A stretch of DNA of 64,000 nucleotides from Candidatus Woesearchaeota archaeon (GTDB taxonomy: Archaea; Nanobdellota; Nanobdellia; Woesearchaeales; DSVV01): NCBI GenBank assembly GCA_018661705.1, contig JABJHR010000010.1, forward strand, positions 66,911 through 130,910, written 5' to 3'. The notes below the pieces were generated by a model that saw nothing but the letters and a program-made list of their open reading frames with translations, was not told where the DNA came from and ran no database searches. The number at the start of each line of letters is the position of its first letter. Position 1 is the stretch's first letter. The translations under genes were made by a program, and so were the position numbers. This document shows positions 3,462-51,595 of the stretch, in pieces.

Positions 3462-3565
3462 TTGTACTAATTTATGCTTGTTAACACATAGGTTATATTT
3501 AAATGTTTTGTTTCTGTAACTACTCGTGAGTAGTTCTTATGTCTTTTGTATTTTGAATTGGGATT

Positions 3566-3616
3566 GAGAAGCTCTAGAACACTAGGTCCATAGGACATGT
3601 CACTCACGAATTTTTA
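3566..3616 (+). repeat. Repeat family A, 3'-half fragment (ACACTAGGTCCATAGGACATGTCACTCACGAATTTTT)
   Basis: Matches the 3' half of A1/A2; the hairpin stem is retained with a different loop (ATA). Confidence 0.55.
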
Positions 3617-3729
3617 AAATAAATAATATTCTTCTAGCGAGAACTAATTGTATTTAATTATAAGAAAAAATAAAAATTAATTTTTTTCCATGTTTTAAAA
3701 TTGAAAATTTTAAAGCCAGAAAAACAGTT

Positions 3730-3909
3730 TTACTGTTTTTCCATGTATCCGCATTTGCCGCATGTGTCTCTGTTCTTATGTTTTGCCATGAACACAGCTG
3801 GGCCACATTTTGGACATGATTTATTTAATTTTTCTACTTTGTCTCCGGATACTTTATAATTTTTTGAAACATTAGATGTTCTTTTTGGTTTTTTCGGTTT
3901 CTTTGCCAT
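3730..3909 (-). CDS. rps27ae: 30S ribosomal protein S27ae (eS31); small gene not in the ORF track
   Basis: 59-aa reverse ORF MAKKPKKPKRTSNVSKNYKVSGDKVEKLNKSCPKCGPAVFMAKHKNRDTCGKCGYMEKQ. C4 zinc ribbon CPKCG...CGKCGY, immediately downstream of S24e as in the archaeal rps24e-rps27ae operon. Confidence 0.75.
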   Translation of the reverse strand: MAKKPKKPKRTSNVSKNYKVSGDKVEKLNKSCPKCGPAVFMAKHKNRDTCGKCGYMEKQ

Positions 3910-3918
3910 TTTATTTAC

Positions 3919-4437
3919 CTATTCTTTTTTTTCTTCAGCATTTTCAGCTGGCTTTGCTTCTTCTTTAGCAGGAGCTTCTTCTTTTTTCTCTTCTACTTTT
4001 TCTTCAGCCTTAGGTTCTTCTTTTTTTTCTTCTTCAGCTGGTTTTGCTTCTTTTTTAGCAGGAGCTTCTTCTTTTTTCTCTTCTACTTTTTCTTCAGCCT
4101 TAGGTTCTTCCTTTTTTTCTTCTTCAGCTGGTTTTTCAGCTTTTGGTTCTTCTTTCTTTTCTTCTTTATTATGTTTGTCTATTAGAACTTTGCCTTCTAA
4201 TCTTTCCATATATTTAGCGTCTTTGTAAACATGAGCAATAACTTTAGCAGTTTTTTGTCCATATCTTTGATAAATATGTCTGATAATAATAAGACTCTCA
4301 TCTGTTTTTAGTTTCTTTGCAATATCTTTTCTTAATTGAACTCTTGAAGGAGTTTTATTTTCAAAATCAACCATTGCACTAATTCTAGTTCTTTCTAACA
4401 GTGGTGTTTCCCTTTGTTTTGTGATCTCTAATTCCAT
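3919..4437 (-). CDS. rps24e: 30S ribosomal protein S24e with a C-terminal K/E/P/A-rich repeat extension
   Basis: N-terminal 100 aa MELEITKQRETPLLERTRISAMVDFENKTPSRVQLRKDIAKKL...IIIRHIYQRYGQKTAKVIAHVYKD is S24e-like. The C-terminal ~70 aa are (EEKKEEPKAEEKVEEKKEEAPAK)n, encoded by a ~93-nt tandem duplication at 3957-4142. Confidence 0.8.
   Translation of the reverse strand: MELEITKQRETPLLERTRISAMVDFENKTPSRVQLRKDIAKKLKTDESLIIIRHIYQRYGQKTAKVIAHVYKDAKYMERLEGKVLIDKHNKEEKKEEPKAEKPAEEEKKEEPKAEEKVEEKKEEAPAKKEAKPAEEEKKEEPKAEEKVEEKKEEAPAKEEAKPAENAEEKKE
3957..4142. repeat. ~93-nt tandem duplication inside the S24e 3' coding region
   Basis: Two nearly identical units, gcttcttc(t)tttagcaggagcttcttcttttttctcttctactttttcttcagccttaggttcttc..., seen directly. 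Confidence 0.8.
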
Positions 4438-4453
4438 CTTAATTCCCTCGACA

Positions 4454-4639
4454 TTATTTTACTTTTATTGCATATTCGCCTTTTTGTGCAATTCCAACTT
4501 GTTTTGCAATAAATGATTTTTCTGGATCGGCAATAAATAATCTTCCTTGCCAATTTGTTGAAAATGATGATGTTTTACATTCTGGACATTCACTTTCGTT
4601 TACGAATAATTTGCATCTTTTACATACTTTTCTTGCCAT
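4454..4639 (-). CDS. spt4: Transcription elongation factor Spt4 (RNAP subunit E'')
   Basis: 61 aa, zinc ribbon CKRCKLFVNESECPECK, C-terminal ...KGEYAIKVK; upstream of rpoE' as in the conserved operon. Confidence 0.75.
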   Translation of the reverse strand: MARKVCKRCKLFVNESECPECKTSSFSTNWQGRLFIADPEKSFIAKQVGIAQKGEYAIKVK

Positions 4640-4777
4640 TTTTATTACCTTCTATCTTGAGTTTTTATGCACAAAAATTTCATTTAAATTTTTGGCATCC
4701 TAAAAATCCGTTTGTCAAAATGGGTGTTACGACATACCCCTACCTTTAGGTTTGGGTGTGATACTCATGACGGATTT

Positions 4778-5380
4778 TTATGATTTTGCTTTAGCGCCTT
4801 TTGCTTTTGTTCCTTTTGTTGTTTTTTTAGCATCAGCAGCTGCTTTTTTTGCTTCTTCATCAATCCAGTCTAGTTTTCCAAGGCCATGTTGCCTCATTGT
4901 TAATCCTAGTTTTGGATTTGTTTGATCTTTATAACTAATAGCAATGATTCTTGCTCTGCATAAATCATTTACTTTTAAGCTTCTTTTACTTTCTTTTCCA
5001 GCTAAAGTTTTTTCTTTAGAAAAACTTACAAAATCATCCATTGTTTGGGAAATGTGAATCATTCCATCTAATGGGCCAACTGAAATAAATGCACCAAAAT
5101 CAGCAATGTCTTTGATTTTTCCAAGAACAACTTCTTGTAAATCTGGCTTGAAAACAAGTAAGTGGAACATTGTTTTATAATAAATAGCCCCATCACCAGC
5201 AATAATTATGCCTTGTGAAACTTCTTCAATATCAGAAACATCAATTACAACACCTAATTCCCTAGATATGTAACCATCATATTTCTCTCTGATTTGTTTT
5301 TGAATTGCTATTGTGGTATCTTCTCCGAATAATTTTGGGTCTACCCTTATATGATCCTCAATCTTTAGTTTGTAATACAT
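4778..5380 (-). CDS. rpoE: DNA-directed RNA polymerase subunit E' (Rpo7), S1 domain
   Basis: 200 aa with Rpb7-like N-terminus and S1-like fold, K/A-rich tail; operon context with spt4 and the PIN protein. Confidence 0.8.
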   Translation of the reverse strand: MYYKLKIEDHIRVDPKLFGEDTTIAIQKQIREKYDGYISRELGVVIDVSDIEEVSQGIIIAGDGAIYYKTMFHLLVFKPDLQEVVLGKIKDIADFGAFISVGPLDGMIHISQTMDDFVSFSKEKTLAGKESKRSLKVNDLCRARIIAISYKDQTNPKLGLTMRQHGLGKLDWIDEEAKKAAADAKKTTKGTKAKGAKAKS

Positions 5381-5451
5381 GAATTTTGCCTCCTTGCGTT
5401 GCTTTGTTAATGTAAGCTGTTTTATGTATTGTTTTTAATCTTAAGTACAAA

Positions 5452-5883
5452 TCAATAATTAACCAATTCTAAGTGGCTTTTCTGCCTTAAAACTATCACT
5501 CTTTTTAAATGTTTTTTTAATTCTTTGTCTGTTGTAGCTATAATATAGTCATTTTTGACTTCTTTTATTATATCATCAACATATTTATCTTTATATATAC
5601 TTATTAACTTCTTATTAGTTTTAATAGGGATTATATTAAGTTTTCCATCTTGAACCATATTTTCAACAAGTTTCAATGCGATGTTTACGGCCCGTTTAGT
5701 GGTTGTTTTCTGTTTCCTGGCCTTCTCTGGCAGTTTTTTGAGCTCATCAAGGCTTTTATCCAAAATATACAACTTATACTTGAAATGGCATATACGTTCA
5801 ATCTCTGTAAATATATCTACTCCAAAGTTTCCTGGAATCATAAGAAAGTTCGTATCTAACAGTATCTTTTCTTCATTGGGCAT
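5452..5883 (-). CDS. PIN-domain protein (Fcf1/Utp24-like), conserved partner of the rpoE operon
   Basis: 143 aa, N-terminal LLDTNFLMIP (PIN acidic motif), ...IIATTDKELK; position upstream of rpoE'/spt4 is conserved in archaea. Confidence 0.65.
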   Translation of the reverse strand: MPNEEKILLDTNFLMIPGNFGVDIFTEIERICHFKYKLYILDKSLDELKKLPEKARKQKTTTKRAVNIALKLVENMVQDGKLNIIPIKTNKKLISIYKDKYVDDIIKEVKNDYIIATTDKELKKHLKRVIVLRQKSHLELVNY

Positions 5884-5963
5884 TTATAAAGAAATGTAGT
5901 GGTTGATTTATAAACTTTACTATCTTTTTTATAGTAACTGTTTGAATTCTATTCAAAAGTTTT

Positions 5964-7232
5964 TCACTTATTTTTATTCTTTTTTTTCTCTAATTCTTTT
6001 TCTTTCTCAAACAATCTTTCTTTTTCATTTTCTAATGTTTTTTCTGGCGTTAAAAACCAATGATCAAATTTGCTGACAAAGGTTGCAACAATTAATGAGA
6101 ATAGCATAAATATAACTACTAGATTTAATATTGTTTGAAGTCCAGGTATTTCTGTAACTTTTGTTGCTAATGTAAACGCTACTACTGCTACAGCAATTCC
6201 TTTTGGAATGTTAAATGTCATGAATAGTTTTTCTTTTATTGTTAGTTTTTGTTTATTCATAGCCCACATTACTGCGGCGTATCTAATGCACAAATAAAAT
6301 ATAAACAGTATAAACGCTTTAATCCAAAAGATATAACTACTAAAAGGAACACTTATTCCAATTCCTACAAGAATAAAAACAAGTATCATTAATGAATTTT
6401 CAAATACAGAAGAGAAGCTATACAATTGTTCTTTCTGTTTAACATAAAAGTTTCCAAACATTAATCCCATTACTGTTACTGCTAAAACTCCGTTACCCCC
6501 TAAATTTTCTGCAAGAATATATGTTAAAAGTGCAGCAGTAATTAAAGCCAGAGGGCTTATTGTTTCTGAGTATGCTTTTTTCATTGCTTTTGCTACAATC
6601 AATCCAATTAAAACTCCTGCTCCAATTCCGACGACAAATTGGGTGATAAATGGTTTTAGGTTATCTAAAAGTTTTGAAAAAATAACTTCTTGTGCAGTTA
6701 ATGATTGCATTAAATCTAAAATAATAAATGGTAATAAAACAGTTAATGGCGTATTAACAATTGATTCAATTCTTAATAATTCTACTATTTTGTGGTTGCC
6801 TTGTTTTAGCATTGACAAAATAACATCGGGACTTGTTCCAACCATTATGCTGGAGAAAATTAATACTAAAAACACATCTTTGATTCCAAAAAGTAATGAT
6901 GTTGCAATTGCAAGTAAGAACATATTAAGTAATAAAAAGAAAAAAGCTAATTTTAATGCTCTTAATGTGTATTCATCAATCGTTTTCCATTTAAACCTAG
7001 AGGCAGCATCAAAAATAATCATAACTAAAGCAAGAACAGCTAACCCAGTTAAGAAAGTATGAGAAAACTGAAATAATTTTTCTCCATAATAAGTCATCTT
7101 AGACAAGATAATCCCTGAAATTAACAATAATAATAAATTAGAGGTTTTTAATTTTTTAGAAATAATTGCAATAAACACACCTATCAATAAAATTATAGCT
7201 ATGTTTGTTAAGTAAAGTAAATATTCTTCCAT
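5964..7232 (-). CDS. polytopic membrane protein, putative monovalent cation/H+ antiporter (CPA-like)
   Basis: 422 aa, about 11-12 hydrophobic segments, charged K/E tail; resembles NhaP-type exchangers by topology only. Confidence 0.4.
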   Translation of the reverse strand: MEEYLLYLTNIAIILLIGVFIAIISKKLKTSNLLLLLISGIILSKMTYYGEKLFQFSHTFLTGLAVLALVMIIFDAASRFKWKTIDEYTLRALKLAFFFLLLNMFLLAIATSLLFGIKDVFLVLIFSSIMVGTSPDVILSMLKQGNHKIVELLRIESIVNTPLTVLLPFIILDLMQSLTAQEVIFSKLLDNLKPFITQFVVGIGAGVLIGLIVAKAMKKAYSETISPLALITAALLTYILAENLGGNGVLAVTVMGLMFGNFYVKQKEQLYSFSSVFENSLMILVFILVGIGISVPFSSYIFWIKAFILFIFYLCIRYAAVMWAMNKQKLTIKEKLFMTFNIPKGIAVAVVAFTLATKVTEIPGLQTILNLVVIFMLFSLIVATFVSKFDHWFLTPEKTLENEKERLFEKEKELEKKKNKNK

Positions 7233-7488
7233 TGTTTCCCTCTTTTTTTTAAAATATTCTTACTATTGTATATGTACTTATTTATTAGATTATTTATAAA
7301 TATTTTGTATATTGTGTGTAACCTTTCTTTACTCTGCAGTAGTCCTAAACCAAAAAATATATAAATGATCTCTTTCCCCATATCTGTATTAGAGTACCAA
7401 AAGGGAGTGATTTCTTTGAGTCTTGAGGTGATCCAAAGTTAACAATTTGTCTTTTTTAAACAATTAGACATCTAACTAAGGTGAAAAT

Positions 7489-7605
7489 ATGGCAGGGAAA
7501 GTAACAGGTAAAGGCAAGAAAGGCCTAAAAGAAATTATGAACAGAACACGGTTTGACAAGTATGAATTAGAAGAATACATGCTTACAGACAAAGGTTTTC
7601 AATAA
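7489..7605 (+). CDS. small basic protein (38 aa) MAGKVTGKGKKGLKEIMNRTRFDKYELEEYMLTDKGFQ
   Basis: AGGTGA ribosome-binding site 6 nt upstream; below the ORF-track length cut-off; could be a small ribosomal-type or DNA-binding protein. Confidence 0.3.
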   Translation: MAGKVTGKGKKGLKEIMNRTRFDKYELEEYMLTDKGFQ

Positions 7606-7661
7606 AATTTTATTTTTTTCATAAAAAGCTTTTTATAGTGGATGTAATATAATTCTAGTTT

Positions 7662-8249
7662 ATGAAATACATTATTGAACATTTAGATGGACGTTTATAC
7701 AAATGGTGTTTTTTAGAATATAAACATATTTCTAAAATAGTCGGAAAAAGCAGCATTCTATTTACAAACGTGAATGGAGTGAAAGCACGTGAAAAACTAG
7801 GTCCGTCAGGACATGTTTATCATGAAAGTTTTACAGATTCTGAAAATATAACAAGAAAGAAAATATGCGTTTTAGATCCAAATGCTAAACAAATATTAAC
7901 AACTTCTGATAAAAATAAATTTGATTATCTTGTTTTTGGTGGGATTATGGGTGATTACCCTCCGAAAAAAAGAACAAAAGGCTTTTGTACTAAAATGCGA
8001 GAGAAAGGAATTAAATTTGAAACAAGAAATATGGGTAAAGAACAAATGTCAACAGATACTGCAGTTCTTGTTGCAAAAATGATAATGGATGGCAAAAAGT
8101 TTAATGAAATCAAATTCAAAGATACAATTATTATTGATATTAATGATTGTGAAGAAGTTGAGTTACCATTTAGATATGTTCTTAAAAATGAAAAACCAAT
8201 TCTTGCACCAGGTTTAGTTAAACATTTGAAAGAAAGAGGATATTTTTAA
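7662..8249 (+). CDS. conserved hypothetical protein (possible SPOUT/Tsr3-like RNA-modification fold)
   Basis: 195 aa; motifs VLDPNAKQIL and DYLVFGGIMGDYPP are weakly reminiscent of Tsr3/DUF367. Not secure. Confidence 0.35.
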   Translation: MKYIIEHLDGRLYKWCFLEYKHISKIVGKSSILFTNVNGVKAREKLGPSGHVYHESFTDSENITRKKICVLDPNAKQILTTSDKNKFDYLVFGGIMGDYPPKKRTKGFCTKMREKGIKFETRNMGKEQMSTDTAVLVAKMIMDGKKFNEIKFKDTIIIDINDCEEVELPFRYVLKNEKPILAPGLVKHLKERGYF

Positions 8250-8313
8250 AAACCAATTGTCGTAGTGTTTAATACACTGCATACTTTTATACTCTCATCT
8301 TCTATCATTTATT

Positions 8314-9258: not shown

Positions 9259-9365
9259 CATCCCTCTGCAGTTTAGATTTTCAGAAAAAGATTATATTTG
9301 GATAATCTTTTAATTCATTTTTGAAATCATAACCCATATAAACTACCTAATTAATAATTAAGACT

Positions 9366-23876: not shown

Positions 23877-23943
23877 TACTACCAACTACCAACTACTAAC
23901 TACCAACTACCAACTACCAACTACCAACTACCAACTACCAACT
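23877..23943. repeat. heptanucleotide tandem repeat (CTACCAA)x9, then (CTTCATA)x3
   Basis: actaccaactaccaactactaactaccaactaccaactaccaactaccaactaccaactt read directly; lies in the 3' region after the lipoprotein gene. Confidence 0.8.
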
Positions 23944-24408
23944 TATAACCCACTTCATACTTCATACTTCATACTTCAAACTTAGAACTCATATCCCCCT
24001 TATCTACTCCCGAGTGATTTAATGTTTATTCTTTATGATTTTGCTAGTAGAAAGGTTGTATTCTTAAATTTCTTATATTTTATAATCTCCTTATCGCAAA
24101 GTTTATAAACTACCAATTACTATAAAGGAATACATTAAAAGAGTTGTGTTGGGCTTTATACGCCCTAGTATAGTACTAAGTATAGTACATCGTATAATGT
24201 TTCATAAAAGCATTAACTAGTAAACAAGAGGTTGAACTCTACTTTCCAAGTAGATAATGCTCTTAGCTTTATCTAATGCTTTAATCCAAGTAGATAAAAG
24301 AATAAAAAACGAGTCAGAAAACAAACAAAATAAGAAAAAAACAAATAAAACAAGCAAAATACATACATAAAATACAAAAAAGTACGGAAAAGAATTGAGG
24401 TGAAAAGA

Positions 24409-32878: not shown

Positions 32879-34234
32879 TTATCTTCTAGCAATTACTATT
32901 TCTGTTTTATGTGGATCATAAGCAATAATTAGGTTTGGATCTTTATTTTGATCTCTTGGAAAATATTTTTGAGCTACTCTTTTAATATCCTTTGGAGTAA
33001 TTGCTTTTATTTTTTCAGCTTCATCTGATAAACTAAATCCTCTCTTTTTGTACAATTGAGTTAAACGTAGCATTCCATCATTAAGTGGATCTTTGTCACT
33101 ATTTACAGAGGAGATTAAGCTTGCAAGACAATTTCTTTTAAAGATTGATAAATAACCTTCATTCATTTGTGATTCTTCTAAATCCTGTAAATCTCGTATT
33201 AAAGAAAAGACCTCTTTAACACATTTTTGCCAGTATCTTGCGTGTGGATTAATATCTATTCTGAACAATCCTGCGTCTTCTTTAATGCTGTCAGCTGCAC
33301 TATAATTACAACTACCTGAGTAAGTTAAGCCCCATTGTTCTCTAATCTGCCTATAAACAGGAGATTCAGATTCAGCAATATCAAACAAGTGTGTCATTAA
33401 TTGAATAACTGTAATATCAAAACTATTTTCTGGTTGTATTGGAAACGCAATCATTAAATTTGCATTACTTTCTTCTCGGTTAGTAGGATTAATAAGTCCC
33501 GGCGAAGCAATATGACTATAGTAAGGAATGTTTAGGTATTCTATAACTCTTTCTTTAGTTTTTATTGGTGTTCCTGGTGTAAGTCCACCAAAACATCTAG
33601 TAATTTGTTCTTCAATATCTTCTGGTAAATTCCCAACTAAATATAACTCCATGTTGTTTGATATGTGTGTTCTTGAAAAATATGCTTTTAATGCTGCTGG
33701 TGTTATTCTTGAAATTTCTTTTTCTGTTCCCGATAATAAAATAGGTTCATTTCTTCCTTCAATAATTTGAAAGATCTGACTATCAACACTTTTACCAGAA
33801 TATAACCTCTCAGCAGTTTCTCTTAAAATGACTTTTCCTTCTTCTTCACAGATTTTTCTATCAAACTCTGGATCTGTGAATGTGGTTCCAAATGCTTCTA
33901 AGAATACACTAATTTGGTCAGAAAACCCTTGTACTCCATATTCAATTCTATGGTGACTTGTTCCACCATTTGAAACTGTTCCAATTGGCATCCCTTTTTC
34001 CTTACCTCTGATTCTAGCTTCACGTACTATTACATGTTCAAGAAAGTGTGCTACACCTTCTTCTCCTGGGTTTTCATCTATTGCTCCATTATTTACAACT
34101 AATTTACCCGAAAAAAGAGGTTCACCTGAATCATATATGACTACTTCTAACCCATTATCAAGTGTAAATTCTCTATATCTACTCATATCTAATATGTAGT
34201 TTTGCCCCATATCTTCTTTCAGGTAATCACCCAT
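32879..34234 (-). CDS. M16-family (pitrilysin/insulinase-like) zinc peptidase
   Basis: Inverted zinc motif GVAHFLEHVIV (HxxEH) near the N-terminus; 451 aa. Confidence 0.7.
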   Translation of the reverse strand: MGDYLKEDMGQNYILDMSRYREFTLDNGLEVVIYDSGEPLFSGKLVVNNGAIDENPGEEGVAHFLEHVIVREARIRGKEKGMPIGTVSNGGTSHHRIEYGVQGFSDQISVFLEAFGTTFTDPEFDRKICEEEGKVILRETAERLYSGKSVDSQIFQIIEGRNEPILLSGTEKEISRITPAALKAYFSRTHISNNMELYLVGNLPEDIEEQITRCFGGLTPGTPIKTKERVIEYLNIPYYSHIASPGLINPTNREESNANLMIAFPIQPENSFDITVIQLMTHLFDIAESESPVYRQIREQWGLTYSGSCNYSAADSIKEDAGLFRIDINPHARYWQKCVKEVFSLIRDLQDLEESQMNEGYLSIFKRNCLASLISSVNSDKDPLNDGMLRLTQLYKKRGFSLSDEAEKIKAITPKDIKRVAQKYFPRDQNKDPNLIIAYDPHKTEIVIARR

Positions 34235-34308
34235 ATATAAATGTTTTCATTATTAACCACTTTCAAGTAGTTAACACAATAACATTTATAAATAAACCTG
34301 GGTTTCCT

Positions 34309-35427
34309 GTGTATATGCATTTCACAGAATCAGACCTTAAAGAAAGATATCTAGAGAAATTACTTAGCTCTGCAAAGGCAACAGCTGCTGAACCAAAAGT
34401 AATTAGGTGGTTATCTCAAATGGGTAGGGGTGCCACTGAAGCACACGTAAAAGATTTTTTAGGTTCTATTGCTACTAATAAAATGATTAAATTTCAGGAA
34501 AGAGCAATGAGAGAATATGCTGTTGAATGGGGGAATGTTTCAACAGCGCATAAAGAATTTGGCCTTTACAAAACAATTGCTGAATTTATGGGACCTCAGG
34601 AAGGTTTAGGTGTTGATTTTGGATGTGGTGTTGGTCATTTAATTGCTGAAATACAAAAACTAAACAAAACACCTATGTTAGGTATTGATCTTAATTCTTA
34701 TACTTTACAGTTAGCAGAACAATTGCTAAAATCAGAAGATCATGATGTTACAAGAATGTCTGACTCACATATTTCATTTGATCCAATGAAAGGATTTGTT
34801 TTAAGACCAGTTCCTTATTCATTAGATACACCTGTTGATTTATCAGGAATAAATTTATTATGTGAGGATTTTGCAGATATGAAAAACACAACAAGAGTTT
34901 TATACAATCAAGGTAGGAAAGCAGATTTTGCAACATTTACTTTAAGTGGTGGAAAAGAAACTTATGATTCTGGAAACTTTTTACGAGTATTAACTCCTGA
35001 ATTAGATGATATTCATTCAAAAAAAAGTCCGCATTATTTTATGGATACTATTATAAATAATCTTTACAGAGTTTGTCATTATGGTGCAAAAGTTTATTTT
35101 GCTATAAGGTTTCAAGCTTTAGCGAGTGATGGGGGAGAAATTGTTGAAGTTGGTGAAACAAGTAATGACTCTAATTTAGTCTTGCTTGAGGAAGTAGAAA
35201 AATTTCATAGAAATCATTTTCATGACAGATATAATGGGAAATTAGAACTTCTTAAATTTGGAATCACAGAAATGTTAGATGAAACTGGGTTTGATGGAAT
35301 TGGTTTAAATAAAGGTATTATTGGAAGCATAACAAGTGATGCTAGTGGCGGAGATTTAGATGAACAAGTTGTTAAGTTTGATCAATACAAAGTTGTTTTA
35401 ATTGAAGCCAGAGTTTTGGGGAAATAA
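34309..35427 (+). CDS. class I SAM-dependent methyltransferase
   Basis: Motif I GVDFGCGVGHLIAEI; 372 aa. Confidence 0.6.
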   Translation: MYMHFTESDLKERYLEKLLSSAKATAAEPKVIRWLSQMGRGATEAHVKDFLGSIATNKMIKFQERAMREYAVEWGNVSTAHKEFGLYKTIAEFMGPQEGLGVDFGCGVGHLIAEIQKLNKTPMLGIDLNSYTLQLAEQLLKSEDHDVTRMSDSHISFDPMKGFVLRPVPYSLDTPVDLSGINLLCEDFADMKNTTRVLYNQGRKADFATFTLSGGKETYDSGNFLRVLTPELDDIHSKKSPHYFMDTIINNLYRVCHYGAKVYFAIRFQALASDGGEIVEVGETSNDSNLVLLEEVEKFHRNHFHDRYNGKLELLKFGITEMLDETGFDGIGLNKGIIGSITSDASGGDLDEQVVKFDQYKVVLIEARVLGK

Positions 35428-36481: not shown

Positions 36482-36638
36482 TTATAAGTTCTAAGTAATA
36501 AGTTTTAAGTTAGAACTAATTTCTCCAAAAATATTCCTAACACTATTTAAACTTCTTGGTGTTTTTCCGGCTGTCGTCGTAAATCTTTCAGAAAAAGCTT
36601 GATCGAACTTATTAAGATGTTTATCTTTAACTAATGAT

Positions 36639-39236: not shown

Positions 39237-39488
39237 TTTCTCACCTTTAGGTTTGTTTTATTAACTAATTGGCGTCTCATTGTCACTTTTAGTGACAACC
39301 ATATAATTAATAGTATATTTTCGTTATATAGTTTATAAAGTATTGTTTACTTCACAATATAGGTGTGTGACAAAATAGTCATATTTTAGTGTTTTTGGGT
39401 AGTTTTATTCTTCACTCAAGAGTAGTTATGAATCGAAAACTTTAAATATAAGTTAGGTCTTAAGAATATTAATTTAGGGGTAATATGC

Positions 39489-41174
39489 ATGACTGATAAA
39501 GACAAAGATGATAAATCTGGCAAAGGTATCTTTGGTAAATATAGTAATGCGGCAATAATGAGTTCTCTTCTTGGTCTACATAAACAACAGTCTTCTTATG
39601 GGATTGGTAATATCTTAGCAACCACAAATAATCCTAGTGAAATTGATCCTGATCTTAAAGAACGTATGGGTAAAAAGAAATTTACATTAACAGATGGTTC
39701 TGATGATAATACAGGATTTTCTTATAGAGGAAATGCTGGTCCCTTAGGTGATAGTCTTTCTACTAAACTATGGCATGATGAAGGTTTTAGATTAGGAGCA
39801 CAAGGAAGAATGCCACCAACTGATTTAAATGATGTTATGAAGAAAGAAGCAGTTGATCTAAAACCTAAAATTAGATTTCCACATAAAATCAGTGGTATGG
39901 AAGATACTGGTTTCTTTGATATGTCTGGAAGTATGCAACGTGCAGAATACCCGCAATATGATATGTTTGGAAATCCAACTAATAATGCTGCGATAAAAGC
40001 AGAAGTTGAGAGATTGGGGCTTGGTTCTAATTTTGTTGATCTTGGTTTAGAAAAAAAATCAGAGTCTTTGGATTTTATGAATACGTATAAAGAACTAAAA
40101 AAATCAATTTATCAAGAACCTATTCTTAAGAAACAAATTACTAACTTAAAAACTAATAAAAAACTAATTAAACCATTTATTGATAGTGATGGTAATGTGC
40201 AACATCTTGATACTGCAGAATTTGCTAGGATACTTGCTGAGGCTGGACCTAAAAGAGAACCTACTTTTTATCTTGGTCCAAATCCTGCTTATGATCAACA
40301 ACAGACTGAAGAATCTGGACAAAAACCTTATGTTGGAGAAGCTCTTGCTCAACCTATAACAGTTCGTGACGAGGGGAAATTTGCAAGAAGAAATGGTTAT
40401 GTGGAAGGTCTTGAAGGTAAGTTTATGCCTCAACATGGTTTAGACTTTAAAAAATTAATACCTGAAGGATTTGGTGTAGGTTCTGTTGAAGAAGTTATTA
40501 CAAATCCACAATCATTTATGGAATATATTAGTGCAGTTCAATTAGGTGCTCCAATGTCTGGTTCAAGAAGTAATCCAAGAATACTTGCTGGAAGAATTTT
40601 AGGATTTGCAGTTGCAGTTGCTCGTGAGGCAGGAGTGATTCTTGGGGCAGAAGATGTTCCACTTTCAAACAAACATTATAATGTTTGGATGGGTGGTTAT
40701 AATGGATTAGAAAGGGCAGCATTAGAACAAGAAAAAGATAATACTGTTACATCATTTTCACAACAACCAAAACAACTATCAAGAGAAGATTTAGAAGATG
40801 AAGCAATGTATCATGCTGGATTAAGAGTTTGGGCTTCACAACATGGTGGAGAACATATTCCTGTTAACTTATTAAGAAATCCAATTGCTTTAGAAGCATG
40901 TAAGAGAACATTAGAAGGGGGAATGCCTTCACCAAATTATCAAATGAAAGATATGGCTTATTATATGACCTTATCAGCTAATATGGATCCACATATGAAA
41001 ATGCAATTTTTAAGTGGCGGTCCAGTTGCAAGAGCACAACAATTAGTATCTCAATCATCTATTGCAAATAGGGCTGAAAGCGATAAATTATTCTATGAAA
41101 TAATTGGATATGAATGTGGTTTAGCTATGAAAATGGCTGGAAACTCAGTTGTTGATCAGATGAATAAAAGATAA
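39489..41174 (+). CDS. hypothetical protein, paralog 1 of a tandem pair (shared ~300-aa C-terminal domain)
   Basis: The C-terminal region aligns with the next gene: GLEGKFMPQHG / GLETKFMPEHG; ILAGRILGFAVAVAREAG / IVAGRILGYVIGVARETG; MDPHMKMQFLSGGPVARAQQL / MDPQMKMYFLRGGPVAHARQL. Confidence 0.5.
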   Translation: MTDKDKDDKSGKGIFGKYSNAAIMSSLLGLHKQQSSYGIGNILATTNNPSEIDPDLKERMGKKKFTLTDGSDDNTGFSYRGNAGPLGDSLSTKLWHDEGFRLGAQGRMPPTDLNDVMKKEAVDLKPKIRFPHKISGMEDTGFFDMSGSMQRAEYPQYDMFGNPTNNAAIKAEVERLGLGSNFVDLGLEKKSESLDFMNTYKELKKSIYQEPILKKQITNLKTNKKLIKPFIDSDGNVQHLDTAEFARILAEAGPKREPTFYLGPNPAYDQQQTEESGQKPYVGEALAQPITVRDEGKFARRNGYVEGLEGKFMPQHGLDFKKLIPEGFGVGSVEEVITNPQSFMEYISAVQLGAPMSGSRSNPRILAGRILGFAVAVAREAGVILGAEDVPLSNKHYNVWMGGYNGLERAALEQEKDNTVTSFSQQPKQLSREDLEDEAMYHAGLRVWASQHGGEHIPVNLLRNPIALEACKRTLEGGMPSPNYQMKDMAYYMTLSANMDPHMKMQFLSGGPVARAQQLVSQSSIANRAESDKLFYEIIGYECGLAMKMAGNSVVDQMNKR

Positions 41175-41267
41175 ACTTCTTTTTCATTTTCTACTCTTGA
41201 GTAGTTATAAAACAAAAGATTTATATAGTAAACAGGTGTATTTTCTTTAAGATTAGGGGTAAATTCA

Positions 41268-42452
41268 ATGTCAGATGATGATTTTTTAGCAGAGCTTGGA
41301 ATAAGTGAAGAAGATTTTGTTAAGCATAATAGAGAAATTGCTAGAAATAACCAGCTTTCTGATGATGATTTTGAAGAAGTTACTGCAAATCAAGCTATAG
41401 AAACAGAAACTGCTGTAGCAAGACAAAGAAAATATGAGCTAGGTTTTGAAGCTGGTTCTAAAGGTATTGAACCCCCAAATGGGATTTTTGAAGTTTTAAC
41501 TACTACAACAAAAACTACTGCTAACTTTGACATTAATAGGGATTTGTATGCACATGAAAATCCAGATGAACAAATTGCTATTCCTGAATTAACTGCTAAA
41601 CCAACTGAGCATTTATTAATTAATCCTGACACTCAAAATCTAGTTTTTAATGCCATAGAAAAAAAAGCAAGGGCTATAAAAAATGCACAAACAAAAACCG
41701 GGCATAAAAACGTCTCAGGATTAACAGGTTATATTGAAGGACTAGAAACTAAATTTATGCCAGAACACGGAATTATATTTGACGACACTATTCCAGCAGT
41801 AATTCCTGTTAGAACTATTGAAGAAATTTTATCTGATTCTAAAGCTTTTTCTGAATTTGATCAAGCAATTCAATTACATGGCCTTTATTATGGTGACTTA
41901 GTTAATCCCTACATTGTTGCTGGAAGAATTTTAGGATATGTTATTGGGGTTGCTAGAGAAACAGGTCTTGTAATAAATGCAGGAGAGGTTCCATTAACAA
42001 CACCTCAATATAAAGTTTGGATGAATGGTTTCAATGCAACTGAGAAAGAAATACCAAATGGAAAAAAGCCAGCTCAACAAACTTTTGAAGAAGAAGTTAT
42101 GTATATGGCTGGTCTTAGAATTTGGTTAGCTAAAAATGGTGGTCAACATATTCCTGCTCAAGAATTAAGACATCCTACTGCATTAAAAAAGTGTAAAGAA
42201 ACTTTAATTGGTGGTGATAATCCTACTTATTATGGGACTAGGGAAGTTTCTTATTATCTAACTTTAGCAAAATCTATGGATCCACAGATGAAAATGTATT
42301 TCTTAAGAGGGGGTCCAGTTGCACATGCAAGACAACTTGCATCTTCATCATCTTCAATGGCACAAAACAAAGAAGAATTATTTCAGGAAGTAATTGGCCA
42401 TGAATATGGGTTAGCGATGAGAATGAGTGTGGGAATTAATAACTTAAAATAA
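41268..42452 (+). CDS. hypothetical protein, paralog 2 of the tandem pair
   Basis: See paralog 1; 394 aa, lacks the first ~170 aa of paralog 1. Confidence 0.5.
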   Translation: MSDDDFLAELGISEEDFVKHNREIARNNQLSDDDFEEVTANQAIETETAVARQRKYELGFEAGSKGIEPPNGIFEVLTTTTKTTANFDINRDLYAHENPDEQIAIPELTAKPTEHLLINPDTQNLVFNAIEKKARAIKNAQTKTGHKNVSGLTGYIEGLETKFMPEHGIIFDDTIPAVIPVRTIEEILSDSKAFSEFDQAIQLHGLYYGDLVNPYIVAGRILGYVIGVARETGLVINAGEVPLTTPQYKVWMNGFNATEKEIPNGKKPAQQTFEEEVMYMAGLRIWLAKNGGQHIPAQELRHPTALKKCKETLIGGDNPTYYGTREVSYYLTLAKSMDPQMKMYFLRGGPVAHARQLASSSSSMAQNKEELFQEVIGHEYGLAMRMSVGINNLK

Positions 42453-42602
42453 TTCTTTTCTTGTGAATTTAAGCTTTAATTTTTTCTTCATCTCTTTTTT
42501 CTTATTCTTCTTTTTATTTACTCGTTAGTAGTCCTCAAACACAATATTTATAAACACTTATTTGATTCTTTATGTAATAAACATACATATGAGGTTATAA
42601 TT

Positions 42603-43163
42603 ATGGCAGGAAATGTACATACAGAAACAGCAGGATTTTCAGAAAGAGAAACTGGTATAAATGCTCTTTTAGCTGAAGAAGTTGAACCAAGACTTATAGA
42701 TGAAGAATCAATTCCTTTAGATGTTGAACTTAATCAATTTGAACAGAGAGTTTATGATGCTTTAAGACCTAAGTTTGAGAGAGTAGGTTTTGATGTGGTT
42801 GTTAAAGGTTCTACACATAAGAAACATTTTCCAGAACATGATTATAGTTGGATTACTAAAGAATTAAGAAGAGCTGGAATTAATGCTCCTATAATTAAAC
42901 AAAAAACTCCAAGTAATTTCAAATATTTAATTGTAGAAGTTTCTCCGAGCGATGGACTTAGAAATGATGATCATTCCTTTGACCATAGTTATCACTTAAA
43001 ATCTGGATTTCATTCAAGATTAAATAAATTTATGACTGGTGGTGCAGTTCCACTTGATGATGCATCAAGAATTCCTGGCTATAAAAATGATGGTGTCTAT
43101 AAATATAGATTCAAAGTTGGTCCAGAAAGAGAAGCTCATGTAGAAATAAGATATACAAATTAA
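42603..43163 (+). CDS. hypothetical protein (third gene of the cluster)
   Basis: 186-aa ORF preceded by the same upstream palindromic motif as the two paralogs; hairpin terminator CCGACCA...TGGTCGG at 43195-43240. Confidence 0.45.
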   Translation: MAGNVHTETAGFSERETGINALLAEEVEPRLIDEESIPLDVELNQFEQRVYDALRPKFERVGFDVVVKGSTHKKHFPEHDYSWITKELRRAGINAPIIKQKTPSNFKYLIVEVSPSDGLRNDDHSFDHSYHLKSGFHSRLNKFMTGGAVPLDDASRIPGYKNDGVYKYRFKVGPEREAHVEIRYTN

Positions 43164-45185: not shown

Positions 45186-45280
45186 ATTAGAAGAAAATCG
45201 CTCATGTTTTTTATATGTTTTGGTCAGGTTTTGTGTTATTATAAGGAATTTTGTTTTTTTTATGTGAAAAAGAAAGATTA

Positions 45281-45516: not shown

Positions 45517-45549
45517 TTTATATCTGTAATATCAAAAAAGAAAATAATC

Positions 45550-46056: not shown

Positions 46057-46082
46057 TTTTGTTTAATCTTTTTTTAATTAAT

Positions 46083-46601: not shown

Positions 46602-46736
46602 CTCTTTTTATGATATAATCTTTTATAATGTAATATTATCTATATATTCTATACTCTGTAATAAAAGATATATAAATATTACTATTAAATTGGGGTTAAT
46701 ATGAAATTTTCGCTTGTTAAGGCAAGTGAGAAATAA

Positions 46737-47687
46737 TTACCTTCTTACGCCAACTTGTGCATAAGGTAAATGAATAGTTTGAGAATCTCCTATCATCTGC
46801 CCAACGATATATGATCCTTGTTTAGCATCTTTTCTTTCAAATGATTTGTATAATAAGAATTTGTTCAAAGCCTGAATATGGGCGACACCATATTGGTCAG
46901 ATACTTTTTTGATTATACCAACTGCTTCTTTTAGTTCTGTATGTGTTGCATATGAAAATTTATTTACTTGTTCATTTGAAAGTAAGGTTTGTCTATATGC
47001 CCTGCTAATTTTTCCAAGTACTTTTCTTTTGAGCGAGAAATGAAGAAAAACATGGCTTGCAAACGGTTCGCCTGCAAAGGGTCTTGGATTAGATAAATGA
47101 TCGTAACTCTTAACATATTCGCTTCTTTGCTGTGCTTTATCTTGTAATACTAATGCATTTGGTTCTACTTTTTGGCCTTCTTCTATTGGGATAAATGAAT
47201 TTGTTCTTGTATCATATCCTGCTGCTACATACATGCCGTCTTGAAATATCATAAACTTAGGTAATTCTTGTGGTAGTTCAGCACCGGGATTTCTCACATC
47301 TCTTGTTTTTAATGTTGGAATAAATATATTTGAACCAGAACCAACAAATGCTTCTGACATTATATGTGTAAATCTTGAATCTAATTTATCTTCAATTTTA
47401 TAACTTCTATCTGCTATTTTCTTCCCTCTTGCATTTTTCCATGTATAACCATTATGTCCTGCATTCAAAAAACTAGGGTCTCCCACTGGAACAACATCTT
47501 CTAGAGAAAAATAATCTGATTTTCTTATTCTTGTTCTTACTTCAGCAGCATCTCCAAGATCTGTCTCTCCAACTAATTCAGGATTTAAATCATTAACAAA
47601 AATTGCATGAATAACATTCCCTAAGTCTTCTGAATCTTCAGAAAGTTTGTGTACTTCTCCATCACATAATGCCAAATTTAGACTCAT
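46737..47687 (-). CDS. hypothetical protein
   Basis: 316-aa ORF. Confidence 0.45.
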   Translation of the reverse strand: MSLNLALCDGEVHKLSEDSEDLGNVIHAIFVNDLNPELVGETDLGDAAEVRTRIRKSDYFSLEDVVPVGDPSFLNAGHNGYTWKNARGKKIADRSYKIEDKLDSRFTHIMSEAFVGSGSNIFIPTLKTRDVRNPGAELPQELPKFMIFQDGMYVAAGYDTRTNSFIPIEEGQKVEPNALVLQDKAQQRSEYVKSYDHLSNPRPFAGEPFASHVFLHFSLKRKVLGKISRAYRQTLLSNEQVNKFSYATHTELKEAVGIIKKVSDQYGVAHIQALNKFLLYKSFERKDAKQGSYIVGQMIGDSQTIHLPYAQVGVRR

Positions 47688-47792
47688 AAAATATGTTATT
47701 CTAATTAGGTTTATATATATTATTGTGATTAAGTGTTATTTATCGTAATCTTTACATAAATCTTTATAAAAATCAGAAAAACACTAATTATT

Positions 47793-48410
47793 ATGAAACA
47801 TGATAGTTCAAAGTTACAACTAAGGCTTATTTTATCATTCTATGCAGTAATCATGATTGTATTTGCTAGGCATGCGTATCTTACAGAAGCAGTTACTTGG
47901 TTATGGGATTGTGTTGTTACTTTTTTAGTTGGTTTAATAGTTTACAAATTCAGAAATAAACTTAATTTAACACCTTTATTATTTTTTGTGCTTATGTTTA
48001 GTTTAGGATTGCATACTGCAGGTGTTTATGGGTTGTATGCACAACAATTTTTAAATTTAGATTTTGATCATTACACACATTTCTTTGGAAGCATGGCGAT
48101 GTGTATGATATTAACAAACTGGTTATTGCATTACAAAAGTTTGAAATATAAATTAGGAGTTGTTTGTTTTATTGCGATTCTTATGACCCTTGGAATAAGT
48201 GCAATCCATGAAATAATTGAATTTCTAGGATATTTCTTTTTTGGAGAAGGTGAAGGATTTTTATTTGCAGGGGCAGGTGATGGAATATTAACTTCTGCAG
48301 ACATTGGAGTAAGTGGAACGTATCATAATGCAATGATTGATCTTTTGTTTAATGCAATTGGTGCAGTTGTTGCTTGTATTGTTTTGGGTTTTAAAAAATT
48401 ATTTTTATAA
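47793..48410 (+). CDS. integral membrane protein, unknown function
   Basis: 205 aa, about 6 TM segments. Confidence 0.45.
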   Translation: MKHDSSKLQLRLILSFYAVIMIVFARHAYLTEAVTWLWDCVVTFLVGLIVYKFRNKLNLTPLLFFVLMFSLGLHTAGVYGLYAQQFLNLDFDHYTHFFGSMAMCMILTNWLLHYKSLKYKLGVVCFIAILMTLGISAIHEIIEFLGYFFFGEGEGFLFAGAGDGILTSADIGVSGTYHNAMIDLLFNAIGAVVACIVLGFKKLFL

Positions 48411-48424
48411 TCTTGGAAAAAAAT

Positions 48425-48572
48425 CCTAGCGAAAAATAGCATTCGCAATTGTTAAAGAGTAATAATATTTAATATTTTAATACAAAAAATAACCATGGCC
48501 AGGCGAGGTGAAACCGAGTAGGATTTTTTGAGTGGAACGAAAAAAGTCCGTCTGTGCCTTTGTTGTTATTTT
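48425..48572 (+). repeat. A 5'-half (48425-48470) directly followed by a B copy (B4, 48486-48572)
   Basis: TAGCGAAAAATAGCATTCGCAATTGTTAAAGAGTAATAATATTT...AATAACCATGGCCAGGCGAGGTGAAACCGAGTAGGATTTTTTG-AGTGGAA-CGAAAAAAGTCCGTCTGTGCCTTTGTTGTTATTTT. Confidence 0.65.
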
Positions 48573-48600
48573 TTGTTCTTATACTTTCAAAGTTTTATTA

Positions 48601-49002
48601 ATGTCATTAAATAACTTTAAAATGGATTTACAAAAAAGAATTGAAACAATAAGAAAAAGAGTTGCAGAGAATAAAGCATTTAACCCTAATTGTTTTGGTG
48701 TTGCTTTGTACTTAGCTGGGTTTAGTGATAATTTGGCTTCAATTAGAAGAATAGGTGCTGAAGCTGTCTTAGGAGAAGAATTAACTCTTCCACAACCTGG
48801 TTGTTTTGTTACATTTAGATCCAGTAAAAGATATATGGAGTTACATCACCTAGGAATAATTCTTAATGGCAATCCCAAAGAAATGGCCCATTATCATTCA
48901 AATACAGGCTTAGTTTTAGACGAAAACATAAAGGCATTTCAAGAAAAACATTATAAGGGATATATGGTTAAATATTATCAAGCGAATCAACAAACATCAT
49001 AA
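48601..49002 (+). CDS. hypothetical protein
   Basis: Start moved to MSLNNFKMDLQ... because the track start at 48532 lies inside the B4 repeat. Confidence 0.4.
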   Translation: MSLNNFKMDLQKRIETIRKRVAENKAFNPNCFGVALYLAGFSDNLASIRRIGAEAVLGEELTLPQPGCFVTFRSSKRYMELHHLGIILNGNPKEMAHYHSNTGLVLDENIKAFQEKHYKGYMVKYYQANQQTS

Positions 49003-49038
49003 AAAAACACTAATTTTATATACTATTTTCACAATGGA

Positions 49039-49734
49039 ATGCATATGAGAACTAAAATCATTGCAACTATTGGCCCTGCTTCTATGAAAAAAGTTAAACA
49101 AATGTGTAAAGCAGGAATGCATATTGCAAGGATTAATACGAAATATGGTAAAACCAAAGAGTATGAAAAGATTGTTTCTGATTTAAGAAAAACAAAATGT
49201 AAAATTATGTTTGATATTAAAGGTCCTATGCATATTGAATGGTTAAAGAAAAAAGATTTTGATTTTATTGCGGTTTCTTTTGCTCAAACAGCTAAACAAA
49301 TTAGAGAAATAAGAAAAGCATTTTCTCCAAGACGAATTAGAATTATCTCAAAGATTGAAAACAGAAAAGGTTTTCACAATTTAGCAGAGTTAATCAGAGA
49401 AAGTGATGGAATAATGGTGGCAAGAGGAGATTTAGGAAGACATGTTCCATTTGAAGAAGTTCCAATACTTCAAAAATTAATTATTAGAAGATGCAATAAA
49501 AAAAATACAATGGTAATCACTGCAACTGAGATGTTATTATCAATGGTTAAATCTAAAATTCCAGAAAGAGCAGAAGTAAGTGATGTTGCAAATGCAATAT
49601 TAGATGGCAGCAATGGAGTAATGCTATCAGAAGAGTCTGCTATTGGCAAACACCCTGTATTAGCTGTCCAAACAATGGCTAAAGTGATTACTTGCACTGA
49701 GAAGAATATGGGTAGATTGAGTGTTTGTGATTGA
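49039..49734 (+). CDS. pyruvate-kinase-like protein, truncated (231 aa; PK barrel motifs only)
   Basis: MRTKIIATIGPAS...AGMHIARINTKYG (PK N-terminus) and ITATEMLLSMVKSKIPERAEVSDVANAILDGSNGVMLSEESAIGKHP (PK active-site region). No B-domain insertion and no C-terminal domain. Confidence 0.5.
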   Translation: MHMRTKIIATIGPASMKKVKQMCKAGMHIARINTKYGKTKEYEKIVSDLRKTKCKIMFDIKGPMHIEWLKKKDFDFIAVSFAQTAKQIREIRKAFSPRRIRIISKIENRKGFHNLAELIRESDGIMVARGDLGRHVPFEEVPILQKLIIRRCNKKNTMVITATEMLLSMVKSKIPERAEVSDVANAILDGSNGVMLSEESAIGKHPVLAVQTMAKVITCTEKNMGRLSVCD

Positions 49735-49921
49735 TTACTTTAAGTGATGTATTAAGCTACAACAAATGTTGTATTATTTTTCATTAATTTTAACCATTTA
49801 GGCGGCTCCGACAAAATGGTCTGTAAACTCTTTTTCTGTTATATTTCATTTTATTGATACTACCAAAACGATAAAATACCATTAATTTTATAAATAGATT
49901 CTTGTTTTTAAATTCTAACGC

Positions 49922-50072
49922 GCCAGCGTGGCACAATCTGGTACTGCGCAAGCCTGGAAATGTGCTTTTGCGCAAAGGTTAGCTTGTTGGCTTCGGCCTA
50001 TCCCGGTTCAAATATCAAACTGTGTTTAATACACAAAAAAACGCAGTTTTTTTGAATGTCCGGGCGCTGGCG
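49922..50072 (+). tRNA. tRNA-Ser (anticodon GGA) with two putative introns (37/38, 21 nt; T-loop, 46 nt)
   Basis: Hand-folded. Acceptor GCCAGCG/CGCTGGC, U8, 3-bp D-stem GCA/TGC, anticodon stem CAAGC/GCTTG with loop CUGGAAA, long variable arm TTGGCTTCGGCCTAT, T-arm CCCGG-TTCAAAT-[intron]-CCGGG, discriminator G, oligo-T. Mature length 84. Confidence 0.5.
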
Positions 50073-50140
50073 TTTTTTTATCTATCTAAGCTATTTCTTT
50101 CCATCAATTTTAAATATAACAATCTTTATAATATAATTTT

Positions 50141-51520
50141 ATGAAAAAAATGTATTATATTGTTATTATTGTTCTAATTATATTATTTATATTTGTGGCA
50201 GCTCCAGAGAATGAGGAAGTAGTTGAGGATTTGCATGGGCAAGCAGGTGAAGTATACATGCCTGCTGAACAAAACTCTATAATAGATGATATTGAAGAAC
50301 AACCAATTCAAGAAGTAGAACAAAATCAGAAAATAAAGAATGAACCTAAAATTAATCCTCCCTTTGTACCACCACCAATTGAACATATTGAAGAAAGACC
50401 TGAACCACCACAACCTGTTTCTGAATTTCAAAGTTGTGGTGATAAGATGGATTTATTAACTCATTCGCCTTTAGATTATGATGATTTTATTAACATTGTT
50501 CCTTTAGGTAATCTTAATCCTTCTGGACATACATTTCCAACTGATCATATCTATTGGAGATTACGTCCTAAAAATACTAATAAGCCTTACATACTATCAA
50601 TAACATCTCCGTTAATTTCTCCAGGAGATGGTTGGATAACTGAAATAAGTTCTTCAGAACATCTTTATGCTACCCCTACTTTTACAGATTATAGTTTTAA
50701 ATTAGTTTTTTGTGAAGAGTTTAATATAGAATTTGGTCATGTAAGTTCTTTATCTGAAAAATTAGAAAAAGCATTTGATAATGCAAAAAGAAATTGTGAT
50801 AAATATGATACAGGGGGAGGTGGTTATGCAAATTGTTGGACTGAAGAATTAACTAAGTTAAAAGTTTCAGCAGGAGAAGTCATAGGGACAGCTGGTGGTA
50901 ATCCTGATCAAGATGCATTAGATATTTGGGCACATGATTTTAGAATCACACCATTAAATTATGTCAATCCTAAACGATGGGATGAATTTAGTTTACATGT
51001 TGTTTGTGCTTTAGATTATTTTGTAGATGAGGAAAAAGAAAAGTTTTATGATCTATTAGGTGGTTATAGTCCTTCTGCAGATAAAGATAAGAAAAGAACA
51101 ATTGAACCTTTATGTGGAACAGTTGAACAAGACATTAAAGGAACTGCACAAGGTGTTTGGTTTATTGAAGGAACACCACAAAAAGTTTCATATAGTGAAG
51201 ATTCTCATCTTGCATTAGTTACTGATAATATTGCTCCTGACTTTAATGTGTTTTCTGTTGGAACTTCTACTGAAATAGAATCCGATACATATCTTTTTGA
51301 ACCAGAAAAAACAGGAGATGTTAATATTGCATTTGCTGATGTAAGGCCCGGAAAAACATATTGTTATGAACCATTTAAACCTTGGGAACCTACTAAAGGA
51401 TATGGTTTTGTTATTTTATTAGAACTTTTAGATGAAGAAACATTAAAGATTGGAAAAAACCAAGGAAAAAGATGTAAGAAACCTTATTCTTTTGATGATT
51501 ATGTGATGTTTGAAAGGTGA
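50141..51520 (+). CDS. secreted/membrane-anchored protein with Pro-rich linker, unknown function
   Basis: N-terminal hydrophobic signal/anchor MKKMYYIVIIVLIILFIFVAA; 459 aa. Confidence 0.45.
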   Translation: MKKMYYIVIIVLIILFIFVAAPENEEVVEDLHGQAGEVYMPAEQNSIIDDIEEQPIQEVEQNQKIKNEPKINPPFVPPPIEHIEERPEPPQPVSEFQSCGDKMDLLTHSPLDYDDFINIVPLGNLNPSGHTFPTDHIYWRLRPKNTNKPYILSITSPLISPGDGWITEISSSEHLYATPTFTDYSFKLVFCEEFNIEFGHVSSLSEKLEKAFDNAKRNCDKYDTGGGGYANCWTEELTKLKVSAGEVIGTAGGNPDQDALDIWAHDFRITPLNYVNPKRWDEFSLHVVCALDYFVDEEKEKFYDLLGGYSPSADKDKKRTIEPLCGTVEQDIKGTAQGVWFIEGTPQKVSYSEDSHLALVTDNIAPDFNVFSVGTSTEIESDTYLFEPEKTGDVNIAFADVRPGKTYCYEPFKPWEPTKGYGFVILLELLDEETLKIGKNQGKRCKKPYSFDDYVMFER

Positions 51521-51595
51521 TGTCTGGGAGTAACCACTTCTGAGTAGATATTATTCAAAAACTTTATAAATCCATATGTGATCTTTTGTTGTAAT

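Follow-up and report, generated by a model that had tools for sequence, protein, structure and literature searches.

Why does one short inverted repeat recur upstream of genes of such different kinds within a single stretch of archaeal DNA? The question is raised by a 64,000-nucleotide (nt) stretch from a Candidatus Woesearchaeota archaeon (assembly GCA_018661705.1, contig JABJHR010000010.1, positions 66,911 to 130,910 of the forward strand), which is referred to here, at its full length, as the window and is numbered from its first letter. The host belongs to the Woesearchaeota (DPANN) and has a GC content of 31%. The original prediction took the repeat for a shared transcription-factor operator defining a small regulon that includes two tandem paralogs. 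This reading is supported by the spacing of the motif, by its confinement to promoters and by the fact that most promoters lack it; moreover, it is backed by conservation in six other Woesearchaeota genomes and by the recovery of window sites with a matrix of foreign sites. We put the probability at roughly 0.78 that the motif is a cis-regulatory operator, or upstream control site, for one sequence-specific, probably dimeric DNA-binding protein governing a small regulon, as judged from sequence.

Motif sequence and promoter geometry

In a motif-anchored alignment, the consensus is the 12-mer ACTY-NN-NAGTAG, and its centre comprises 2 nt at every site, so that the spacer of 2-4 nt first described for the repeat proves to be constant. 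The invariant core is ACT-N4-AGT(AG), with a fuller form ACTY-N3-AGTAG-T. Across 14 aligned sites (seven from the window and seven from other genomes), ACT and AGT are invariant and the next AG is nearly so, while a T 5' of ACT is present at only some of them. The AGTAG half is the TATA-proximal one at all sites, and this half (AGTAG-T) is longer than the distal half.

The position of the motif relative to the promoter is equally regular. From its 3' end to the TATA box there are 14-16 nt at the seven window sites and the seven foreign sites, in agreement with the predicted fixed distance just upstream of the TFB recognition element (BRE) and TATA box, and the profile of motif-to-TATA distances is empty outside this range. 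In particular, the gap is 15 nt at most window sites, 16 nt at the site at 3531 and 14 nt at 34257-34270 (plus strand). The TATA octamer at the sites is the canonical archaeal TTTAWAWA, preceded at all sites by an A-rich, BRE-like stretch. Distances to the start codon are looser: 56-85 nt from the motif, within the 50-90 nt originally given, and 42-56 nt from the TATA box to starts with a GGGGT/GAGGT Shine-Dalgarno sequence. The exception to both is the site at 7331, which lies 158 nt before a 38-amino-acid (aa) open reading frame (ORF) at 7489, behind a leader of about 100 nt, and to which the 50-90 nt rule does not extend.

The string ACTC-N2-GAGTAG has six matches in the window against 0.15 expected, and ACT-N4-AGTAG has 11 matches, at nine loci, against 1.61 expected. 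It had been argued that copies equally frequent in coding sequence would mean no enrichment; eight of the nine ACT-N4-AGTAG loci are intergenic, in a window that is 85% coding (binomial estimate, P ~2e-6). Composite elements, in which the consensus is matched at 8/10 positions or better and a TATA-like octamer follows 13-17 nt downstream, number eight in the window; 1000 permuted-consensus decoys of the same composition average 0.25, and none of them reaches eight. A match at 5960 (minus strand) is marginal, at 8/10. A chance origin of the motif is ruled out by the shuffles and by the decoy consensus words. The motif is carried by about seven of the roughly 45 promoters in the window, and it is absent from the ribosomal-protein promoters and from the promoter of the DUF357 gene (43351), which lies right after the 39.5-43.2 kb cluster.

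Sites and target genes in the window

The seven sites and their targets are as follows.

Site 1, 3520..3533, minus strand: CTACTCGTGAGTAG, a perfect 14-nt palindrome, 16 nt upstream of the TATA box TTTAAATA (3503-3496, minus strand)
Site 1 target, 2892..3446, minus strand: orphan gene, 184 aa
Site 2, 7331..7342, plus strand: ACTCTGCAGTAG, 15 nt upstream of the TATA box TATATAAA (7358-7365)
Site 2 target, 7489..8249, plus strand: 38-aa ORF (7489-7605), then an SFM1-like methyltransferase gene (7662-8249)
Site 3, 34257..34270: CCACTTTCAAGTAG, at the centre of two divergent promoters
Site 3 target, 34315..35427, plus strand: 370-aa gene with a weak methyltransferase-like match, followed by a TPR/SEC-C gene
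Site 3, possible second target, 32879..34210, minus strand: M16 peptidase gene
Site 4, 39414..39425, plus strand: ACTCAAGAGTAG, 15 nt upstream of the TATA box TTTAAATA (39441-39448)
Site 4 target, 39489..41174, plus strand: 561-aa gene of an orphan all-helical family
Site 5, 41191..41204, plus strand: CTACTCTTGAGTAG, a perfect palindrome, 15 nt upstream of the TATA box TTTATATA (41220-41227)
Site 5 target, 41268..42452, plus strand: 394-aa gene, paralog of the 561-aa gene
Site 6, 42520..42531, plus strand: ACTCGTTAGTAG, 15 nt upstream of the TATA box TTTATAAA (42547-42554)
Site 6 target, 42603..43163, plus strand: orphan gene, 186 aa
Site 7, 51536..51547, plus strand: ACTTCTGAGTAG, 15 nt upstream of the TATA box TTTATAAA (51563-51570)
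Site 7 target, 51596..52345, plus strand: Amidohydro_2 family gene, 249 aa

All six sequences quoted in the original prediction are present in the window, and the sites are real, with positions that had been off by 0-7 nt; site 3 is additional to them. As had been claimed, all three genes of the 39.5-43.2 kb cluster have a copy each. The minus-strand gene behind site 1, previously thought to start at 3461, most likely begins at ATG 3446 and encodes 184 aa according to the gene caller. Its product has no Pfam, NCBIfam or PHROG match, and the gene is accessory, being absent between DUF7121 and S27 in a relative's locus (L010).

At site 2, the 38-aa ORF shows 87% identity over 24 aa to a 40-aa ORF of L010. 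The leader between the predicted promoter and the 38-aa ORF (MAGKVTGKGKKGLKEIMNRTRFDKYELEEYMLTDKGFQ), at 7366-7488 (about 100 nt), is partly conserved in L010 and has no Rfam match. Site 3 faces two TATA boxes, at 34285-34292 on the plus strand (distance 14 nt) and at 34241-34234 on the minus strand (15 nt). The 370-aa gene is leaderless, with about 30 nt from TATA to ATG, and an M16 peptidase start at 34210 (443 aa), a choice that is inferred, is consistent with leaderless transcription from the minus-strand TATA box.

Conservation in other Woesearchaeota

Foreign loci comprising 125.6 kb were fetched from seven other Woesearchaeota genomes via a conserved 613-aa nucleotidyltransferase anchor, the homologs of which carry the names Candidatus Woesearchaeota or Nanoarchaeota, in keeping with the placement of the host. 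Contigs of the metagenome-assembled genome GCA_018673555.1 and of many metagenome assemblies are 99.9% identical to the window and uninformative on strain-level variation. The foreign loci contain seven composite matches against 0.61 for decoys, and none of 500 decoys reaches seven. When a matrix was built from these seven foreign sites alone, its nine best positions in the window correspond to six of the seven window loci, and its three top positions outscore the best of any shuffled window.

Wherever the region upstream of a 561/394-aa family member is available, the motif stands in front of the gene; this concerns four genomes, namely the window (twice), L004, L009 and L015. The family proteins are only 24-32% identical across genomes, as opposed to 75-87% for the neighbouring nucleotidyltransferase. 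In particular, in the organism of L003 and L004 the identity of the anchor is 75% for the N-terminal part and 86% full-length, whereas that of the cluster protein (681 aa) is only 32%. The L004 gene for this 681-aa protein has ACTCTAAAGTGG 14 nt upstream of its TATA box, and ACTTGATAGTAG precedes the TATA box of the following gene (173 aa) by 15 nt; comparison of the window site at 39414 with L004 reveals that the motif is kept at the orthologous promoter. In L009, the cluster is a single operon (478, 166 and 190 aa) with a lone ACTTCAGAGTAG 14 nt from TATA. In L015, the TATA box of the family member, which shares only 24-29% identity with the window proteins, is preceded at 15 nt by ACTCAATAGTAA. 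Neither the cluster nor the 184-aa gene is present in L010, yet this locus has ACTTGTGAGTAG upstream of the orthologous 40-aa ORF; relative to the site at 7331, its footprint preserves ACT, AGTAG and the stretch through TATA, whereas the four central bases are changed and the flanks have diverged. L011 and L013 have one composite site each, before unrelated genes of unknown function.

Two further features of the conserved region concern the surroundings of the sites. A stretch of 28 nt, ACTCAAGAGTAGAAAATGAAAAAGAAGT, is perfectly identical between window positions 41175-41202 (minus strand) and L003 positions 2093-2120. In L003, it is coding (GDSRVENEKEV) and lies within the 166/173-aa gene, so that the relative has a perfect intragenic copy of the motif; this gene is 90% identical at the DNA level between L003 and L009, and the window is without it. 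In the window, the stretch is inverted and intergenic, lies between the 561-aa stop codon and the 394-aa promoter and contains site 5, and the sequence 3' of the site 5 motif is homologous instead to the promoter of the relative's 173-aa gene. From these alignments, the match at 41193 looks like a recombination junction within a palindromic operator. A second conserved block, (G)ACAAAA..GTCATAAT/ATTT, is found upstream of the nucleotidyltransferase gene in the window (39368-39400), L004 (about 742-775), L009 and L015. It probably belongs to the nucleotidyltransferase promoter, because L015 retains it even though the cluster does not lie next to the gene there.

Proposed mechanism and candidate regulator

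In the proposed mechanism, the regulator would dock as a putative dimer on the palindrome, just beyond the BRE. The motif centre lies about 25 base pairs (bp) upstream of the TATA centre, an inferred position of about -50 if the TATA box is near -27, and the bound factor would modulate recruitment of the TATA-binding protein (TBP) and transcription factor B (TFB). A dimeric factor is suggested because the core ACT-N4-AGT is perfectly palindromic, and the site may be functionally asymmetric because the TATA-proximal half (AGTAG-T) extends beyond the distal one. The regulon would comprise the three singly promoted cluster genes, the 184-aa gene, the 38-aa ORF with the SFM1-like methyltransferase gene, the divergent 370-aa/M16 pair and the amidohydrolase gene.

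Among characterised archaeal systems, a close likeness is found in TrmB operators, which have the sequence TACT-N3-AGTA for TrmB of P. furiosus and T. litoralis and TACT-N7-8-GAGTA for VNG1451C of H. salinarum; the motif bound by TrmBL1/Tgr, TGM, is TATCAC-N5-GTGATA (reviewed in PMC4158304). Like TrmB operators, the motif described here is an inverted repeat, and its half-sites resemble their (T)ACT and AGTA. However, it has N4 between ACT and AGT where the published spacers are N3 and N7-8, and its 5' T is not conserved; moreover, the window contains no TrmB gene, and the targets (orphan proteins, an SFM1-like methyltransferase, an amidohydrolase and an M16 peptidase) do not place sugar transport or metabolism at the centre of the regulon. 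TrmB-family genes are present in the loci of three relatives (L009, L011 and L018). A regulator of the TrmB family is a tentative lead by analogy, less likely than not.

The position of the motif has parallels of its own. Ptr2, an Lrp-family protein acting at M. jannaschii rb2 and fdxA, and TFB-RF1 of P. furiosus bind immediately upstream of BRE/TATA and recruit TBP or TFB, and TrmBL1/Tgr and VNG1451C are activators when their site is upstream of BRE/TATA (PMC4158304). The motif shares this location; it differs from the Ptr2 and TFB-RF1 sites in sequence, Ptr2 uses paired sites, the TFB-RF1 site is not the same palindrome, and the window has no Lrp/AsnC gene. EarA of Methanococcus maripaludis likewise has an activator site upstream of the BRE of the fla operon, a dedicated gene cluster (PMC5512572). 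Here, unlike in the EarA system, there is a single palindrome per promoter, and the palindromes are spread over several loci. EarA sites are short non-palindromic repeats. By analogy, an activator would be slightly favoured over a repressor, because sites upstream of BRE/TATA go with TBP- or TFB-recruiting activation in characterised archaea.

Alternative explanations

Several observations weigh against a dedicated operator and its regulator. The target genes have no recognisable functional theme in common, and no candidate regulator of the winged helix-turn-helix, Lrp or TrmB type was found in the 64-kb window, with Pfam even at E <= 0.1. The TrmB genes of the relatives cannot be tied to the motif because these paralogs share only about 30% identity among themselves and the one in L009 is not preceded by the motif. 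An exact copy at 24004-24015 (minus strand) is intergenic and without a TATA box, and a copy at 5817-5828 is coding and without promoter geometry. Moreover, the promoters at 7331 and 42520 are alike beyond the motif, as are those at 41193 and L003 1809, and given this pairwise likeness some promoter copies may be of common ancestry. The same likeness, which exceeds the palindrome, speaks for regarding the copies as relics of promoter duplication, a cassette spread with gene duplication or recombination and read by no dedicated factor; the paralogy of the 561-aa and 394-aa genes fits this explanation as well, and the 28-nt identity between a segment that includes the site at 41193 and a relative's gene fragment points to recombination at the site. 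However, between orthologous sites ACT/AGTAG and the spacing do not change whereas the central N4 and the flanks do, the motif is kept across genomes despite protein identities of 24-32%, and unrelated genes (the amidohydrolase, 184-aa and 370-aa genes) have only the motif and TATA in common. Common descent would account for some of the extra promoter likeness, though not for the footprint pattern or for the sharing of motif and TATA alone, and duplication as the whole explanation is quite improbable.

The rigid distance of 14-16 nt to TATA, the constant orientation of the AGTAG half toward it and the A-rich, BRE-like spacer at all sites would also suit a promoter-class element, that is, an extension of the core promoter, lying far upstream, that the basal machinery would recognise (an alternative TFB or TBP paralog or a factor associated with RNA polymerase). 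This is unlikely, in that the motif lies outside the usual 6-7 bp BRE footprint, is palindromic as for a dimeric factor and, at 34257-34270, serves two opposite TATA boxes with one copy; furthermore, the BRE and TATA elements of motif promoters resemble those of other promoters. That the inverted repeat forms an RNA or DNA hairpin, acting as a terminator or insulator for the upstream transcript, has a negligible probability, even though T-rich tracts precede four sites and the site at 41193 lies 17 nt after the 561-aa stop codon. The fixed distance runs to the downstream TATA box and not to the upstream stop codon, and the predicted RNA hairpins have folding energies of only 0 to -6 kcal/mol; four of the seven do not fall below -0.8 kcal/mol and do not outperform shuffled sequences. 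A role as RNA hairpin or terminator was excluded on account of these weak predicted stems, of the setting of the site at 39414, which lies in a divergent intergenic region with no co-directional gene upstream, and of the conserved bases A11 and G12, which have no conserved pairing partners.

The orphan protein family and its cluster

The 561-aa and 394-aa proteins are 46% identical over their C-terminal 248 aa (a domain of about 245 aa) and have no Pfam, NCBIfam or PHROG match. An exhaustive HMMER search found only 36 relatives of the family among 1.84 billion cluster representatives, none of which has a Pfam domain except for a GNAT fusion in one, and a cluster look-up revealed that distant members are nearly all unnamed singletons. 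The AlphaFold model of the 394-aa protein is all-alpha, with a mean confidence score (pLDDT) of 73 that rises above 90 in the conserved domain; it has no fold match in the PDB (Foldseek, E <= 0.001) or in BFVD. Profile searches of the target proteins against the PDB gave only IpaD/BipD-like matches, which were non-significant (E 0.1-0.5), and a model of the 186-aa protein predicted from its single sequence had a pLDDT of 41, too low to be of use. The 186-aa gene has orthologs in L009 (190 aa, 35% identity) and L003 (207 aa, 31%), and no homology is detectable among the 184-aa, 186-aa and 166/173-aa proteins. Two scans of GTDB representative genomes found neither the orphan family nor a neighbouring gene. 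A viral or provirus origin of the cluster was rejected, given no PHROG matches, no IMG/VR relatives and no BFVD fold match; the composite DNA pattern has three matches in IMG/VR, two in an identical bacterial or phage-like context and one in a contig of 49% GC.

The cluster (39237-43163) occupies a variable hot spot beside the conserved nucleotidyltransferase gene and occurs in the window, L004 and L009. The anchor protein of L008 is identical, yet the cluster gives way there to an island of integrase, DNA methylase and type IV secretion system (T4SS)-pilin genes; the cluster is absent from the nucleotidyltransferase-adjacent position in L010, L011/12, L013, L016 and L018, and L015 has a family member on the opposite side of the anchor gene. 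Judged from these comparisons, the cluster is a novel, fast-evolving and sporadically distributed gene module. It is conceivable, if rather speculative, that one operator and its regulator control a lineage-restricted hypervariable module in DPANN archaea, made up of the orphan all-helical family and small partner proteins, which is gained, lost and rearranged at the nucleotidyltransferase hot spot, and that the operator may act as a recombination point that reshuffles it, a role hinted at by the 28-nt junction at site 41193.

Other features of the window

TATA boxes lie only 29-33 nt before the ATG in many genes (e.g., 5452, 16113, 24789, 27084, 43351, 43674, 50141, 58197 and 58883), and leaderless transcripts are therefore implied; by contrast, the motif-bearing genes of the cluster have short leaders with a GGGGT Shine-Dalgarno sequence. 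Heptamer tandem repeats occur in intergenic DNA just downstream of genes, at 1748-1779 (ACTTCAA, 4.6 copies), 23878-23943 (ACTACCA, 9.4 copies), 23952-23983 (ACTTCAT, 4.6 copies) and 36482-36512 (TTATAAG, 4.4 copies), and the motif copy at 24004-24015 shares the 23.8-24.3 kb intergenic region with such repeats. A 90-nt tandem repeat (2.1 copies, 97% matches) is found at 3943-4135 inside a 172-aa ORF containing S24e, and its length varies between strains in the overlapping alignment of L005 with the window. From about 62369 to the window end (L007 from 16453 onward) extends the start of a giant gene, called as 8309 aa, which runs off the window. No known RNA families or tRNAs were found in the window.

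Biological significance

Searches of the literature found no published description of the motif and nothing on transcription regulation in DPANN archaea, for which, to our knowledge, no genetic systems exist. The element would be of an ordinary kind, a transcription-factor operator upstream of an archaeal promoter, one that appears unusually cleanly defined and belongs to a poorly understood lineage. The hot-spot pattern of the cluster, if true, is what would be expected of host-interaction or conflict genes of an episymbiont. As the motif is conserved across genera with a fixed promoter geometry, it offers a handle for scanning Woesearchaeota regulons and for seeking the regulator. Moreover, it unites several orphan genes in one putatively co-regulated set and thereby provides a first functional clue for a family without annotation, Pfam domain or structural neighbour.

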